DNA of 64,000 bases from assembly GCA_965219085.1 (NCBI GenBank), contig OZ244720.1, positions 1,792,001 through 1,856,000 of the forward strand, given 5' to 3'. The DNA is from Dehalococcoidia bacterium (GTDB taxonomy: Bacteria > Chloroflexota > Dehalococcoidia > UBA2979). The translations under genes and the position numbers were made by a program. The notes below the pieces were generated by a model. That model searched no databases, had not been told where the DNA came from, and saw only the letters and a program-made list of their open reading frames with translations. How positions within the stretch are numbered: position 1 is the stretch's first letter; every line of letters begins with the position of its first letter. Shown here in pieces: positions 7,394 through 60,943 of this stretch.

Positions 7394-8050
7394 CAGGGTG
7401 CTGAAAAAGGCGCGGCCATCTGGCAGGATAGCGAAGGCGGCGGGGGCGTAGCCTGGGAGGCAGCCCCGTGCGAGGCGACGCTGAGCGTCAGACCAACATG
7501 TTGCTGGCGGTGACGCCGGACTCCTTCATCCCGGACGACCACCCGATCCGACGCATCAAGCCGATCGTCGATGCAGCGCTGCAGCGGCTCTCGCCGCTCT
7601 TCGGCACGATGTACGCAACGAGCGGGCGGCCCTCGATCCCGCCCGAGCACCTGCTCAAGGCGAGCCTGCTGATCGCGCTCTACTCGATCCGCAGCGAGCG
7701 CCAGTTCTGCGAGCGGCTGCGCTACGACCTGCTCTTCAAGTGGTTCTTGGACCTCAACATCTCAGACGCGCCGTTCGACGCCTCGAGCTTCTCGAAGAAC
7801 CGCGAGCGCCTGCTCGCAGCCGATGTCGCGCGCGCCTTCTTCGCCGAGGTGGTGGCCGAGGCAAAGCGCCGCCGGCTGCTCTCGGCCGAGCACTTCACGG
7901 TGGACGGGACGCTGCTCGAGGCGTGGGCGTCGCTCAAGAGATGGCATGAGGGCCGGTCTCTTCCTCAAGGGGGATACTCGCCCCCGAAACAGCGGCCTCG
8001 ATGGGCCAGAACGGCTCTTTGCGGAGCTTTGACGAGGTAGGAGACCGGCC

Positions 8051-9139
8051 GTGCAGCAGGATACCGCAACGACGTGGAGCATTGAGGGCAAGGAAGGGTC
8101 AGGGGTCACCATCGGCCTCGACGTGGGCGACCGCTACACCCACGTCCACGCCCTCGGCGCCGGCGGGGAGGTGGTACGTGAGAGGCGCGTCCGCACCACG
8201 ACGGCAGCGCTGGGCATGGTGCTGACCGGCCTCCCCCCATCGCGGGTCGTGATCGAGGCGGGGCCGCGCTCGCCGTGGCTGAGCCGCCTCATGGCGGACC
8301 TCGGCCACGAGGTGGTCGTCGCCAACCCGCGCCAGGTCGCGCTGATCGCCGGCAGCCAGCGCAAGACCGACCGGCTCGACGCCGAGTGGCTGGCGCGGCT
8401 GGGGCGCTTCGACCCCCAGTTGCTCGCCCCGATCCGCCACCGCAGCGAGGCGAGCCAGCACGACCTCGCCGTGGTGCGCGCCCGCGACGCGCTGGTGCGC
8501 TCGCGGACGCTGCTCATCAACCACGTGCGCGGGGCCGTCAAGGCCTGCGGAGCCGCGTTGCCGTCGTGCACGGCCGAGGCGTTCCACCGCAAGACGGCGG
8601 ACCACATCCCCGACGGGCTGCGCCCGGCGCTGCTGCCGCTGGTGGAGGCGATCGGCGAGCTGACCGCGCGCATCGCGGCGGCCGGCCGCGAGATCGAGGC
8701 GTTGTGCGAGGCTCACTCCGAGACCGCGGCGCTGCGCCAGGTCACGGGCGTCGGGCCGATCACCGCGCTCACGTTCGTGCTGACGATCGAGGATCCTGGG
8801 CGCTTCCCGAAGAACCGCGAGGTCGGCGCCTACCTCGGGCTCGTGCCGAGGCAGCGCGACTCGGGCGAGCGCACGCCGCAACTCGGCATCGGCAAGAGCG
8901 GCGATCCGCACCTGCGGCGGCTGCTGGTGCAGGCCGCGCACTACATCCTCGGCCCCTTCGGGCCCGACACCGACCTGCGCCGCTGGGGTGAGCGCTACAC
9001 CGCTACGGGGGCCGGTAACGCGAAGAAGCGCGCCGTCGTGGGCGTCGCGAGGCGGCTGGCGGTGCTGCTGCTCGCGCTGTGGAAGACCGGCGAGGTCTAC
9101 GAGCCGTTGCGCGACGCCGCGGCGCAGGAGGCCGCGTAG
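8051..9139 (+). CDS. IS110/IS1111-family DEDD recombinase (transposase)
   Basis: IGLDVG, VIEAG, KTDRLDA (DEDD), GVGPIT, AYLGLVP..RDSG. Confidence 0.93.
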   Translation: MQQDTATTWSIEGKEGSGVTIGLDVGDRYTHVHALGAGGEVVRERRVRTTTAALGMVLTGLPPSRVVIEAGPRSPWLSRLMADLGHEVVVANPRQVALIAGSQRKTDRLDAEWLARLGRFDPQLLAPIRHRSEASQHDLAVVRARDALVRSRTLLINHVRGAVKACGAALPSCTAEAFHRKTADHIPDGLRPALLPLVEAIGELTARIAAAGREIEALCEAHSETAALRQVTGVGPITALTFVLTIEDPGRFPKNREVGAYLGLVPRQRDSGERTPQLGIGKSGDPHLRRLLVQAAHYILGPFGPDTDLRRWGERYTATGAGNAKKRAVVGVARRLAVLLLALWKTGEVYEPLRDAAAQEAA

Positions 9140-9199
9140 CAAGGCGCGGCGCCGAAGCAACCGACCAGGAGAGCGAGACTGAGACGGACCTGGGAGGAG

Positions 9200-9400
9200 G
9201 CCCAGCAAACCAACCACTGCACGTGATGCCGGGCAACGGGCGACTGCGAGGCGGTAGCGGTCCAACAAGGACGTTCAAGAGTTGGCAGCGCCCCCTGGAA
9301 GCAGGATGTGCCTTCATGCACCGGGCCCGATACGTGGCCCATCAAAGAGTGCGGATAGAAGCTCGGCACAGGCTCCGTCAGGGGACATCACGAGCGGATC
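9200..9400 (+). ncRNA. Putative seekRNA/bridge RNA of the IS1111-type element (ends approximate)
   Basis: 9250-9258 GGCGGTAGC is the reverse complement of the right target flank; 9272-9281 CGTTCAAGAG matches the left flank CGCTCAAGAG; 9355-9361 ATAGAAG matches the element end. Confidence 0.72.
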
Positions 9401-9631
9401 GGCCCCGATGTCGAGGAGCGCCACGCCCCGAGGAGGAGGCCGCCACGTCGGCCTTGCAGAAAGACCGTCCCTCATAGAAGCTACCGCCCGCGCGACGAGC
9501 AGGAGCCACCCCTGGGCGGACGCAACCCGGATGTCGACTTCCGCGGGCGGCGGCGCAGCCGCGATACGCATAGTTCCGGCACGGACCCGGAGGCGCGGCT
9601 GTACACGAAGACACCCCAGGACGCTAAGGGG

Positions 9632-10855
9632 TCAAGCAGCGAGGTCCTCGTGGGTGTAACGGTGTCCCCAGGCGGTCGTCTCGTCGTAGGGCAAGCGGCG
9701 CTTCAGGCAGCCATGTAGGTAGCCGACGAGACGGTTGCCGAGGGCGCGGAGCGCCTGGTGGTGGAGGTCGCCCGCGGCGCGCCGCCGATCGTAGAACTCG
9801 CGGCAGCCGGGGCTGGCCTGCAGGGAGCACAGCGCCCACTGGTCGACTGCGTCGTAGAGGCGCCGGTTGCGGACGAAGCGGGCTTTCACGGTGTGCTTGC
9901 GGCCGGATGCTACCGTCAGCGGCGACGTGCCGGCGTAGTTCCTGCGGGACTTCGCCGACTCGTAGCGTTCGGGGTCATCCCCGAACTCGCCAAGCACCCG
10001 GGCGCCGAGGACCACGCCGAGACCGGGCAGGGAACGGTAGATACCGGCGTCCGGGTGCTGCTCAAAATGGCTCGCGAGCTCGGCCTCGAGCTCCTTGATC
10101 TGACGGTTGATCTCGCCGATCACCCTCATTGCCGCACTGGTGCTCGCGGCGAATGCCTTGCTCACCGCGGGCGGAGCCTCGAGCTGCGGTGAGCGCAGCG
10201 CGTCGCGGACCTCGGCGGCGCGCCGCTCGATGTTGCGCCGGCGGCCGCCGCGGCGCAGCGCGGAGCGGATCTGGGTGATGCTCAGCCGCGCCGCCTCGCG
10301 CGGGCCAGGCGCTGTCGCCAGCACGCCCACCGCGTCGTCGTGCGCGAGGTCGGGGAAGGCCTCCAGCGCACCCGGAAAGTACTCCCTGAGCGCGTTGCGC
10401 AGCCGGTTGGTCTGGCGGACGCGGTCCCAGATCAACTGCTGGTGGGCGCGGGCGAGGATGCGCACCGCGGCGGCTTCGTCGCTGTCGCCGGCGACCTCCC
10501 GGTGGTTGTGCCGGTCGGTGCGGACGAGGTCGGCGAGCAGCTTCGCGTCGCCGGCGTCGGACTTGGCGCCGCCGACGTGGTGGCGGTCGCGGTAACGCGA
10601 CGCCGAGCGCGGGTTGATGGCGTAGACGTGGTAGCCGGCCGCGAGCAGTGCCGCGACCCAGGGGCCGCGGTCCGTCTCGATGCCGACGATCACCTCACCC
10701 GGTCCTGAGGCGTACCCGGCGACCAGTCCGTGCAGGGCAGTGATGCCCTCCACCCCTTCGGGCAGACGCCGGGCGGCGAGCCGCTCGCCCGCGTCGTTCA
10801 TGAGATGGACGTCGTGGTGGTCTTCGGACCAGTCATCGCCCAGGTACAAGGCCAT
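9632..10855 (-). CDS. IS110-family DEDD recombinase (transposase)
   Basis: LGDDWS, GIETD, KSDAGDA, SLPGLG, YAGTSP..ASG motifs. Confidence 0.93.
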   Translation of the reverse strand: MALYLGDDWSEDHHDVHLMNDAGERLAARRLPEGVEGITALHGLVAGYASGPGEVIVGIETDRGPWVAALLAAGYHVYAINPRSASRYRDRHHVGGAKSDAGDAKLLADLVRTDRHNHREVAGDSDEAAAVRILARAHQQLIWDRVRQTNRLRNALREYFPGALEAFPDLAHDDAVGVLATAPGPREAARLSITQIRSALRRGGRRRNIERRAAEVRDALRSPQLEAPPAVSKAFAASTSAAMRVIGEINRQIKELEAELASHFEQHPDAGIYRSLPGLGVVLGARVLGEFGDDPERYESAKSRRNYAGTSPLTVASGRKHTVKARFVRNRRLYDAVDQWALCSLQASPGCREFYDRRRAAGDLHHQALRALGNRLVGYLHGCLKRRLPYDETTAWGHRYTHEDLAA

Positions 10856-10879
10856 CGTGTTTCAGTTCCTCTCCCGCTT

Positions 10880-11100
10880 CGCGCTGCTCGGTGCGACCCG
10901 GCGGGTTGGTTCCTGCGACGGCCTAATGGATCAGTGCTCGATGGCACGACACCCCATGAGTGCTGCAGAACAACCCGGAATACCAGCAGGGGCTCGGTCT
11001 TCGTGAAGCGGTCCAGAAGCCGCAGGGATCAGCTGAGAGCTCACCGGCTGGGCAGGGTCCAGAACCAGTCTGCCAGAGAACCTCTGGCCGCTGGTCGGGC
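10880..11100 (-). ncRNA. Putative bridge RNA (ends approximate)
   Basis: Minus strand in order: CTGATCCCT (11032-11024), hairpin, CACGAAG (11005-10999), TGGGGTGTC (10956-10948), hairpin, CCATTAG (10929-10923); these match target-left, target-right, donor-left and donor-right. Confidence 0.8.
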
Positions 11101-11541
11101 CCCATTAGGGGTCGGGGCAGACGGCGAAGCTCAGCTACATGGGCCATCTGCTCACCGAGAACCGTCACGGTCTGGTGCTGGACGTGGAGTTGACCGAGGC
11201 GAACGGGTACGCCGAGCGCGAGGCGGCGGTCACGATGCTGGAGCGCAGCGTGAGCGGCTGCGGGACGCTGGGCGCCGACCGCGGCTACGACACGCGCGGC
11301 TTCGTGGCGGCGCTGCGCGCTCGCGGCGTGACGCCGCACGTGGCGCAGCACGACCGCGGCCGCCGCAGCGCCGTGGATGGGCGCACCACGCGGCATCGCG
11401 GCTACAGGCAGAGTCAGAAGCGGCGCAAGATCGTGGAGCAGGTCTTCGGCTGGATGAAGACCGTGGGCGGCGGGCGCAAGCTGCGTTTCGTGGGCCGCGA
11501 GCGCAACCGCTGTTGGCTGGAGCTCACCGCCGCCGCCTACA

Positions 11542-59542: not shown

Positions 59543-60943
59543 TCAAGCTCCGGCGAGGGGTTGTAGCGTAGGCAGCGGACGGGCCGGCGCCGGAGCGCTC
59601 TGCGACTCCTGACCGCGGCGGCCCGTCCCCTTGCGCGAGCCCGCGCGGGGGCCGAGTCGCTGGCGGCGCACCTCGGCTGGGACGCTGTAGCGCTCGGCGA
59701 CGATGCTCCGCCCCTCGGCCACGGAGACGGGCTGGCCGTCGCAGTCGCGGATGACGTAGCGCTCGCCGCGCCGCCAGCAGGCGACGACGCGCGTGAGCAG
59801 CGTGGTGGCGATATGGCAGAGCGCCGAGTTGTGGTGCTTGCCGGCGGCGACCATGAGCCGCTGGTAACGGGCGGCGAGCGTGGGGTCGATGCGCCGCGCA
59901 TGGTCGGCGGCGATGAAGATCGCCTCGCGCAGGGCGGCGTCGCCGCGGCGGGTCGGACGGCCGTGGCGGCCGCTCACGCCGGAGGCGTTGAGCGAGGGCA
60001 CGAGCCCGCTGAAGGAGCGCACCCCGGCGAGGGAGCGGAAGCGGTTGGGATCGCCGAGGCGGGCGAGGATCTGGGGACCGGTGACGGGACCGATGCCCGG
60101 CGCCGAGGTGAGGATCGCCTCGGGGTCGGCCTCCTCGAAGAGGAGCGCGATGCGCTCGTCGAGCGCGGCGACCTCGTCTGTGAGGATGAGGGCGAGCCTG
60201 GCCTCGACGGCGATGTCCTCGGCGAGCTGGTCGAAGTCGAAGGCGTCCTCCCAGAGCGCGAGCGTCTCCTCCGCGGCGTCCAGCAGCGCCGCAGCGTGCT
60301 CCGGGCCCCAATGGCCGCGCGAGTGGCGATACAGGAAGCGCCCGAGGCGCGCCCGGCCGAGCCGTTCCACCGTGTCGGGACAGGCGTAGCCGGCTGCAAG
60401 GAACCGCAGCGGGGTCTTGTTGGCGAGGTCGGCGCGGAAGGCCTCCAGCCACTTCGGCCCGAGCAGCTCCAGCAGCGCGTCGAGCCGCGCCAGCGACTTC
60501 GTGCGCCGCTGCACCAGGCTCTGACGCAGCCGCGTCGCGCGCCGCAGCGGGTCGCCCGGCCCGAGGCCGTGCTCGTCGTGCAGCCCCTCGGGGTGCAGCA
60601 GCGGGAGCCGCGCCAGCAGACGCGAGTCGAGCCGGTCGCTCTTGGTGTGCTTATGGTAGTAGTCGCGCAGGTCCGCCGAGCGCTCCGGCGGCACCAGCAC
60701 GACGCGTGCGCCGCGACGGCGGAACCAGGCGGCGAGCGCCACCCAGGCGTTGCGCGTGGGCTCCAGGATCACCAGCACCTCGGTGTCTGTTCCTCGCTCG
60801 GGCAGCATCGCCCACAGCCGCTCGAGGTCTTCGGCCCCGGTGCGGAAGCGGTGTCCGCTCCAGAGGAAGCGCCCGCTCTCGTCGGCGAGGCTCGCCTGGT
60901 GGGCGGCCCGGGACGCGACGTCGATTCCCAACCACAGCTGCAT
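59543..60943 (-). CDS. IS110-family DEDD recombinase (transposase)
   Basis: LGIDVA, ILEPT, KSDRLDS, SAPGIG, FSGLVP..NASG. Confidence 0.93.
   Translation of the reverse strand: MQLWLGIDVASRAAHQASLADESGRFLWSGHRFRTGAEDLERLWAMLPERGTDTEVLVILEPTRNAWVALAAWFRRRGARVVLVPPERSADLRDYYHKHTKSDRLDSRLLARLPLLHPEGLHDEHGLGPGDPLRRATRLRQSLVQRRTKSLARLDALLELLGPKWLEAFRADLANKTPLRFLAAGYACPDTVERLGRARLGRFLYRHSRGHWGPEHAAALLDAAEETLALWEDAFDFDQLAEDIAVEARLALILTDEVAALDERIALLFEEADPEAILTSAPGIGPVTGPQILARLGDPNRFRSLAGVRSFSGLVPSLNASGVSGRHGRPTRRGDAALREAIFIAADHARRIDPTLAARYQRLMVAAGKHHNSALCHIATTLLTRVVACWRRGERYVIRDCDGQPVSVAEGRSIVAERYSVPAEVRRQRLGPRAGSRKGTGRRGQESQSAPAPARPLPTLQPLAGA

Follow-up and report, generated by a model that had tools for sequence, protein, structure and literature searches.

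The 64,000-nucleotide (nt) stretch of DNA analysed here, referred to as the window, belongs to a Dehalococcoidia bacterium whose 3.3-Mb genome, with a G+C content of 70%, is assembled as a single contig (OZ244720.1, of which the window covers positions 1,792,001 to 1,856,000). Positions 7941 to 9480 of the window are occupied by an insertion sequence (IS) that has the features of the IS1111 group and interrupts an IS5-family transposase gene, and whose non-coding region downstream of its own transposase gene very probably encodes a bridge RNA (seekRNA) directing insertion into this site. The genes and boundaries at the locus are as follows.

7468-7940, + strand: 5' portion of the target, an IS5-family transposase gene interrupted by the element, ending with CGCTCAAG and the core AG (7939-7940); Pfam DUF772.
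7941-9480, + strand: whole IS1111-type element, 1540 base pairs (bp), with the second core copy at AG 9479-9480; delimited by genome copies, empty sites and a 1540-base joint.
7946-7959, + strand: ATGAGGGCCGGTCT, the left subterminal inverted repeat, with the terminal extension ATGGC (5 nt) on its outer side.
8051-9139, + strand: DEDD transposase/recombinase gene, 362 amino acids (aa) from a GTG start; PF01548 and PF02371, NF033542; contains GLVPRQRDSG.
9462-9475, + strand: AGACCGTCCCTCAT, the right subterminal inverted repeat; AGAAG (terminal extension and core) comes directly after it.
9481-9610, + strand: remainder of the IS5 gene, beginning with the right target half CTACCGCC and running to the next nested IS110-family element.

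The insertion site, CGCTCAAG-AG-CTACCGCC, lies in an IS5-family transposase gene, an uninterrupted copy of which (L057:490-1566; loci are cited by our own numbers) matches the IS5-family profile NF033581 with 254 bits against a cut-off of 140. The corresponding empty target, CGCTCAAGAGCTACCGCC, occurs in the same genome in six exact copies, and in eight at no more than one mismatch, all of the empty sites being located within IS5-like copies and each carrying a single AG. Two contigs from public runs, one of metagenome DNA and one from an RNA library, join position 7938 to position 9479, skipping 1540 bases with two shared letters, and this joint is the same empty site as that found in the genome. 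Since each empty site carries one AG, the AG at 7939-7940 and the AG at 9479-9480 represent the shared core and target duplication is absent; AG is the core of the insertions of all seven guide types described below. The boundaries, core and anatomy of the element are thus directly observed, and the target that had been reconstructed from the letters of the window alone (hereafter, the original prediction) is correct, as judged from the six exact empty sites and the joint skipping 1540 bases. The subterminal inverted repeats noted at the same time are likewise present: they are 14 nt long, complementary at 13 of 14 positions (93%) and set 5 nt inside each end. Non-coding stretches of 110 nt and 341 nt lie 5' and 3' of the transposase gene, respectively. 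Five copies of the element in the genome are at least 99.8% identical, and six variants are 85-88% identical.

The protein encoded by 8051-9139, the sole long open reading frame of the element, matches PF01548 (DEDD_Tnp_IS110, N-terminal) with 68 bits (cut-off 29), PF02371 (Transposase_20, C-terminal) with 72.5 bits (cut-off 21.3) and the NCBIfam profile NF033542, "IS110 family RNA-guided transposase", with 240.3 bits (cut-off 140). The NF033542 match begins at residue 20, and a protein of about 343 aa is possible; IS1111-type transposases measure 330-350 aa. GLVPRQRDSG fits the GL-P----S(T)G motif described in excerpts of Siddiquee et al. 2024 (PMC11187229) as the C-terminal motif of IS1111-type transposases. 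A two-domain DEDD transposase, site-specific insertion without duplication and a common core dinucleotide are all characteristic of the IS110 family, and subterminal repeats within the 7-17 bp range, a long downstream non-coding region and the GL-P----S(T)G motif are characteristic of IS1111. The repeats, the 341-nt downstream region, the motif and the family profiles support the assignment of the element to the IS1111 group of the IS110 family, in agreement with the original prediction. Protein matches in a plasmid collection were uninformative on the subgroup, being at most about 35% identical and mostly named simply "IS110 family transposase"; similarity of the transposase to IS621 and ISCro4 is confined to the C-terminal domain (E about 1e-7).

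The features recognized or predicted in the downstream region are the following.

9219-9394, + strand: predicted bridge RNA (seekRNA) body, closed by an outer stem (9219-9231 with 9386-9394) in both the nine-sequence consensus fold and the single-sequence fold.
9238-9248, + strand: predicted 5' arm of the base stem of the target loop, GGGCGACTGCG, pairing with GCAGCGCCC at 9285-9293; invariant in nine of nine distinct sequences.
9250-9258, + strand: 5' target guide GGCGGTAGC, complementary to the top strand, core G plus CTACCGCC (right target half).
9260-9272, + strand: apical hairpin of the target loop, GTCC-AACAA-GGAC, between the two guides.
9273-9281, + strand: 3' target guide GTTCAAGAG, equal to the left target half plus core, GCTCAAGAG, save for one U-G wobble; would pair with the bottom strand.
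9294-9305, + strand: predicted connector hairpin CCTG-GAAG-CAGG between the loops, in the consensus and single-sequence folds.
9308-9369, + strand: predicted donor loop, with base stem GTGCC 9308-9312/GGCAC 9365-9369, apical stem GCAC 9318-9321/GTGC 9349-9352 and a hairpin at 9323-9340.
9310-9316, + strand: candidate 5' donor segment GCCTTCA, complementary at five of seven positions to the core plus left-end bases 1-5; overlaps the base stem.
9353-9361, + strand: 3' donor guide GGATAGAAG, containing ATAGAAG, the final seven bases of the element with the core counted in; identical throughout the close family.

All four segments put forward in the original prediction (9250-9258, 9272-9281, 9355-9361 and 9339-9343) are found at these positions. 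Three of its readings of the first loop also hold: GGCGGTAGC is an exact complement of the right side of the target, CGTTCAAGAG (9272-9281) is identical to CGCTCAAGAG on the left side at nine of ten positions, the mismatch placing a guide U opposite a bottom-strand G, and the GTCC-AACAA-GGAC hairpin lies between them. Among 20,000 dinucleotide shuffles of 9140-9480, GGCGGTAGC was found in 31, CGCTCAAGAG at no more than one mismatch in 532 and both target matches within 60 nt in a single one; ATAGAAG appeared in 212 and CCATC in 6623, the latter frequency being that expected by chance. That the matches might reflect nothing but fortuitous similarity in a G+C-rich non-coding region could be argued from CCATC taken alone and from a folding energy no better than that of shuffles, but the joint occurrence of both target matches in only one shuffle out of 20,000, together with the diagonal of the cognate versus non-cognate matrix presented below, refutes chance, to which we attach practically no weight. 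In all guide types and relatives examined, the segment complementary to the top strand (9250-9258 here) lies 5' of the segment identical to it (9273-9281). The original prediction had described this order as reversed. The right guide does come first, but this is no peculiarity of the element, for it is the published IS1111 arrangement: according to excerpts of PMC11187229, in all tested IS1111 members the bottom-strand match is preceded on its 5' side by the top-strand match, the IS110 type showing the opposite order, and the IS1111 order is given in Table 1 of a 2026 review (PMC13604230), as far as excerpted.

The strongest support for the two target guides comes from natural reprogramming across variants of the element. 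Alignment of the downstream regions of the variants found in the same genome reveals two short variable blocks that coincide exactly with the two target guides, outside of which the stems, the hairpin and the remaining downstream region are nearly invariant. Three of these variants read as follows.

Variant B (L006, L007, L011): 3' block GGCAGAG, left flank ending in GGGCAGAG; 5' block CACCCACT, the complement of AG-TGGGTG.
Variant C (L008): 3' block CCACCAG, left flank ending in CCCACCAG; 5' block CGAGCTGCT, the complement of AG-CAGCTCG.
Variant D (L010): 3' block CCGCATAG, left flank ending in CCGCATAG; 5' block CAGGCTGCT, the complement of AG-CAGCCTG.

The true right flanks of L007, L008 and L010 lie beyond tandem right-end remnants and also match the guides. 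The sites identified lie in other insertion sequences, that of type A in the IS5 gene and that of type D in an IS3-like gene, where the joined site CCGCATAG-CAGCCTG has 10 empty occurrences; the site of variant B is within another repeated element of unassigned kind. A scan of one genome per species added 27 further loci from seven metagenome-assembled genomes (MAGs; Dehalococcoidia, Tepidiformaceae and one Candidatus Acidiferrum), and a strict scaffold pattern returned 10 distinct guide pairs from 35 of 38 loci in six genomes (the present one and five related Chloroflexota MAGs). Among 401 genomes of the phylum, a sample evidently devoid of the MAGs of the scan, the pattern was found at 12 sites, all in the present genome.

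Guides and flanks were compared by means of a score that adds the contiguous identity of the 3' block and the left flank to the AG and the contiguous complementarity of the 5' block to the AG plus right flank. The matrix covers seven guide types and the 15 distinct insertions with both flanks, the other eight of 23 having a flank missing; for L005, the right flank was set aside by hand because it is not of IS5 origin. Cognate guides score 10-17 in 13 of the 15 insertions and non-cognate guides 3-8 in 89 of 90 pairings, the sole high non-cognate score (13) being that of the A-type guide against the site holding L009. Both guide strands covary with the flanks across the seven guide types. L001, L002 and L003 probably represent one insertion copied three times, since their nested flanks are common for about 1.9 kb; given this copying and the common insert of L004 and L005 (see below), independent A-type events number about three. 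The left-side mismatch encountered first in guide types A, C and H opposes a guide T to a target C, which in an RNA would be a U-G wobble tolerated in an RNA-DNA duplex and is a hint of the guides acting as RNA.

The same relationship extends to more distant relatives. L036, whose transposase is 69% identical, shares the scaffold; the left flank ACTTCTGAG is matched over 7 nt by the 3' block TTCTGAG, and the 5' block is complementary to G-ACAGTCTC, with a right-side match of 9 nt. L038 (52% identical) matches over 7 nt on the left and five contiguous nt on the right. A metagenome scan yielded 80 loci at 50-71% identity, in 63 of which the first loop is recognisable. The mean contiguous match in these relatives is 4.7 for cognate (n = 41) versus 2.7 for non-cognate pairs (n = 2473) on the left, and 5.6 (n = 48) versus 2.6 (n = 2939) on the right; several loci show 7-10 contiguous matches on both sides, and the top-strand-complementary block comes first in every case. 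We note that L038, from the Candidatus Acidiferrum MAG, harbours two tandem first loops (L038:2287-2540) whose guides differ at one position each, the first of the two fitting the left flank better (7 nt versus 6).

A few loci of the close family have a composite appearance. L009 (C1:340399-341913 of the present genome) occupies an IS5-like site suited to A-type guides, its own being of type B; beyond about nt 300 its sequence is 100% B-type, and its left 150 nt most resemble D-type. Either an A-type RNA inserted a B-type circle, the donor loop and ends being common, or copies recombined. L026 has G-type guides in a palindromic site resembling that of E-type elements, a mismatch that would similarly be due either to trans-mobilisation by the RNA of another variant or to recombination between copies. 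L004 and L005 (A-type; C1:1971386- and 1857515-) share an identical 911-bp insert located within the right end, between CAGAAAG and ACCGTCCCTCATAGAAG, and found nowhere else in the genome.

With respect to the second loop, the 3' guides of the donor and target loops have a common layout consisting of an apical stem, 9 nt ending in AG, 3 nt and the base stem. ATAGAAG being invariant in the close family, covariation was sought in distant relatives. The loop 7-mer equals the right-end 7-mer in 46 of the 55 metagenome loci with a right-end candidate (45 ATGGAAG and one ATGGTAG), and eight of the nine non-matching loci resolve to ATGGAAG under a stricter right-end pattern; ATAGAAG is present in both loop and right end of the window family, L036 and L038. 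That the 3' donor guide and the right end change together over these three states (ATAGAAG, ATGGAAG, ATGGTAG) supports ATAGAAG at 9355-9361 as a genuine right-end (left-donor) guide, consistent with its original description as a match to the right end plus core. The left-end guide proposed with it fared differently. CCATC (9339-9343), situated in and just past the 3' arm of the second-loop hairpin, is refuted as such by its chance-level frequency in the shuffles and by its variation to CCACC, CCACA and CCACG in variants whose left end is unchanged. TCATGC (9314-9319), which complements left-end bases 4-9, was dropped as another candidate: it occurs in 1040 of 20,000 shuffles, and its apparent compensatory change in L036 is a match in a different register. 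In 25 of 29 distinct relatives, five to six of the seven positions of a 7-mer in fixed register (GCCTTCA here) are complementary to the core plus left-end bases 1-5, with weak covariation (left-end base 5 being A with T in 1 of 6 and T with A in 0 of 2). In left-end recognition, a 5' donor guide may be replaced by the long subterminal repeat.

These results bear on an alternative in which the element would produce only a short seekRNA that seeks the target through the first loop, the ends being read by the protein via the subterminal repeats and the second loop holding no donor guide. The second-loop 5' strand, which shows no convincing pairing, is what such an RNA would predict, and excerpts of PMC11187229 report an 82-96-nt seekRNA as the abundant species and emphasise that IS1111 may differ in how the ends are recognised. 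Against this, the geometry of the second-loop 3' strand is that of the 3' target guide, ATAGAAG changes with the right end in three states, and the donor 3' strand is kept at 52% transposase identity where the remaining region has diverged. We consider the short-RNA alternative unlikely, although it deserves some weight, and favour an RNA with both a target and a donor loop.

The donor loop has itself been a site of insertion. Four loci (L017, L025, L031 and L037, from three genomes and of four guide types) are interrupted between GGATAG and AAGCTC inside it, about 100 nt past the first loop, by a sequence encoding the C-terminus of an IS110-family transposase on the opposite strand. The insert would be an RNA-guided IS aimed at the guide-RNA gene of another.

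A consensus fold was computed with RNAalifold from nine distinct sequences (alignment A1, 89% mean column identity). It comprises the outer stem, the first loop with its hairpin, the connector hairpin and the second-loop hairpin; of its 52 predicted pairs, three show compensatory changes, two of them in the second-loop hairpin and one in the outer stem. The GGGCGACTGCG/GCAGCGCCC stem is also kept in relatives with 52-69% identical transposases. The support for the predicted fold comes mainly from the variable loops within a fixed scaffold. RNAalifold offered two local hairpins (GTGC...GCAC) as an alternative for the second loop, which we regard as less likely than the GTGCC/GGCAC base stem, given that the long-range stem persists in L036 and L058 despite base changes and the local one does not; the long-range stem is more likely, not proven.

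We consider it very probable that 7941-9480 is an IS1111-group element whose insertion into the IS5 site is guided by a bridge RNA. The recombinase gene (8051-9139) would be followed by a non-coding region of about 340 nt encoding a bridge RNA of about 175 nt (about 9219-9394) with two internal loops. In the first, the guides at 9250-9258 and 9273-9281 would pair with the target; in the second, GGAUAGAAG would pair likewise with the right end of the element and its core, AG serving as the strand-exchange core in both. Once the element has been excised as a circle in which the right end is joined to the left end, the RNA would hold the circle junction and the CGCTCAAG-AG-CTACCGCC site of resident IS5-family transposase genes together, and the recombinase would then insert the element, target duplication being absent. 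By analogy with experiments on IS621, ISEc11, ISPa11 and ISKpn4, we infer that the region acts as an RNA, that the recombinase binds it and that a circle is the intermediate.

A number of observations weigh against this interpretation. Most of the predicted stems are invariant, and hence uninformative on structure. The folding energy of 9140-9480 is no better than that of shuffles (z = 0.14), and the 185-nt core has a z of -1.84, eight of 200 shuffles folding equally well. Scanning 7900-9520 for a sigma-70-like promoter or an intrinsic terminator found none, and an Rfam search of 7400-10000 with E up to 10 gave three weak matches, none of them within 9140-9480. One metatranscriptome run (5% of sampled words) yielded contigs for the transposase gene and the empty IS5 joint and none over 9110-9384, a result that proves neither way. 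Two of the 15 insertions in the matrix mismatch their own guides (L009 with a score of 6 and L026 with a score of 4), the right flank of L005 (TGACCGCTG...) is not an IS5 half-site, and guide types differ by one base in the register of the guides relative to the hairpin. In the donor loop, finally, the 5' strand shows no convincing pairing, its candidate 7-mer covarying weakly and overlapping the base stem.

The failure of the promoter/terminator scan and of the metatranscriptome to lend RNA support at 9110-9384 may also be read in favour of matches that operate at the level of DNA, whether as target halves captured through half-site recombination or as DNA-DNA guides resembling those of IS200/IS605. 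Guide-coding DNA is a recombination substrate, as seen in L036, where a partial right-end repeat starts exactly past the AG of the 3' guide, and each of the five distinct internal junctions of L007, L008 and L010 comes after an internal AG. Several findings contradict such an origin. The guides are embedded in a conserved scaffold with hairpins that show compensatory changes; the 5' guide is the complement of the target and not a copy of it, which capture cannot yield; the first mismatch is T for C in three guide types, as U-G wobble predicts; and RNA dependence has been shown experimentally in relatives, according to excerpts of PMC11187229 and PMC11208160. A DNA-level explanation is, in our opinion, very improbable, and an RNA guide remains by far the preferred reading.

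Tandem partial copies of the right end follow the full element at L010:3031-3765, L007:3016-3074, L008:3038-3113 and L036:2569-2799. Those of L010 form four units, the first of which holds a second complete RNA gene. Every remnant junction joins ...CATAGAAG to an internal position after an AG, that of L036 being the AG in the DNA of the 3' target guide itself. The remnants look like products of half-site recombination yielding right-end-only modules; they resemble the "half-match" recombination of IS621 described in excerpts of a preprint (10.64898/2026.08.31.748434) and recall the modular circles of ISPpu9 (PMC12288879, in part).

The genome as a whole is rich in related elements, with 30 IS110-family profile matches, 26 of which are above the cut-off, many of them nested in other insertion sequences. 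The window holds three IS110-family elements. The second (9611-11107, - strand), which encodes a 407-aa IS110-type transposase, is inserted in the same IS5 copy, some 130 bp further on; it has AG flanks on the + strand (CT in its own orientation) and six genome copies, and its left end contains CACGAAG, the complement of the core and right flank, at position 103 and a left-flank 7-mer at position 9. The transposase gene of the third lies at 59762-60934 (- strand). The C-type copy L008 (right flank, C1:893398-894622) is located immediately upstream of an 83%-identical variant of the element at 9611-11107, and the single C-type target may sit in the left end of that variant. At seven loci from two genomes (L018, L020-L024 and L025), the first two bases of the element are CT instead of AT, and the element abuts the same sequence of at least 140 nt, which is probably another mobile element that entered at the left tip.

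It is conceivable, and we put it forward tentatively as the less probable side of the argument, that the family constitutes a swarm of guide variants built on one scaffold and preying on other mobile elements. A common donor loop would let the RNA of one variant insert the circle of another, which would explain L009; half-site recombination at AGs, including those in guide-coding DNA, would shed right-end-only modules such as the second RNA gene of L010; and another IS110-family element would in turn be aimed at the donor-loop DNA of the present family. If true, this would amount to natural RNA-guided conflict and satellite formation among insertion sequences. The value of the material lies in its being a clean natural data set, in which a near-invariant scaffold of about 175 nt is combined with 10 guide pairs, known targets, empty sites and a covarying donor guide. 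It could help define the still poorly described donor recognition of the IS1111 branch, offer engineers of bridge recombinases a new and distant orthologue from the Chloroflexota, and show natural off-target (half-site) and trans events.

The element is a published (2024) design in a new host lineage, the arrangement itself not being new. Excerpts of PMC11187229 state that the seekRNAs of IS1111 elements co-purify with the transposase and that transposition depends on them, and excerpts of Durrant et al. 2024 (PMC11208160) report a predicted bridge RNA in the right end for 93% of IS1111 elements. ISEc11, ISPa11, ISKpn4 and ISPst6, to which the present element is likened from published descriptions, share with it subterminal repeats with short terminal extensions, a downstream non-coding region, the GL-P----SG motif, insertion that, in the excerpted account of PMC11187229, involves no target duplication, and close relatives naturally redirected to other sites. 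The present element differs from them in its Chloroflexota host (Dehalococcoidia/Tepidiformaceae-like) and in a target inside an IS5-family transposase gene. The bridge RNA of IS621 (PMC11208160, in part; structures 8WT6 and others), about 175 nt long, has a target and a donor loop that each pair with both strands including the 2-nt core, and serves a DEDD recombinase with a Transposase_20 domain; the RNA predicted here would be similar in these respects. Unlike that of IS621, which lies in the left end, it maps to the right end; the core reads AG and not CT, the element has long subterminal repeats, and the 5' loop strand would pair with the top strand and the 3' loop strand with the bottom one, the reverse of the IS621 arrangement as excerpted. 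ISEc21, an RNA-guided element of the IS110 type described in part of PMC11187229, targets a conserved site in IS3-family transposase genes much as variant D does in its IS3-like gene, but it is a member of the other subgroup, in which the RNA is encoded upstream and the guides come in the opposite order.

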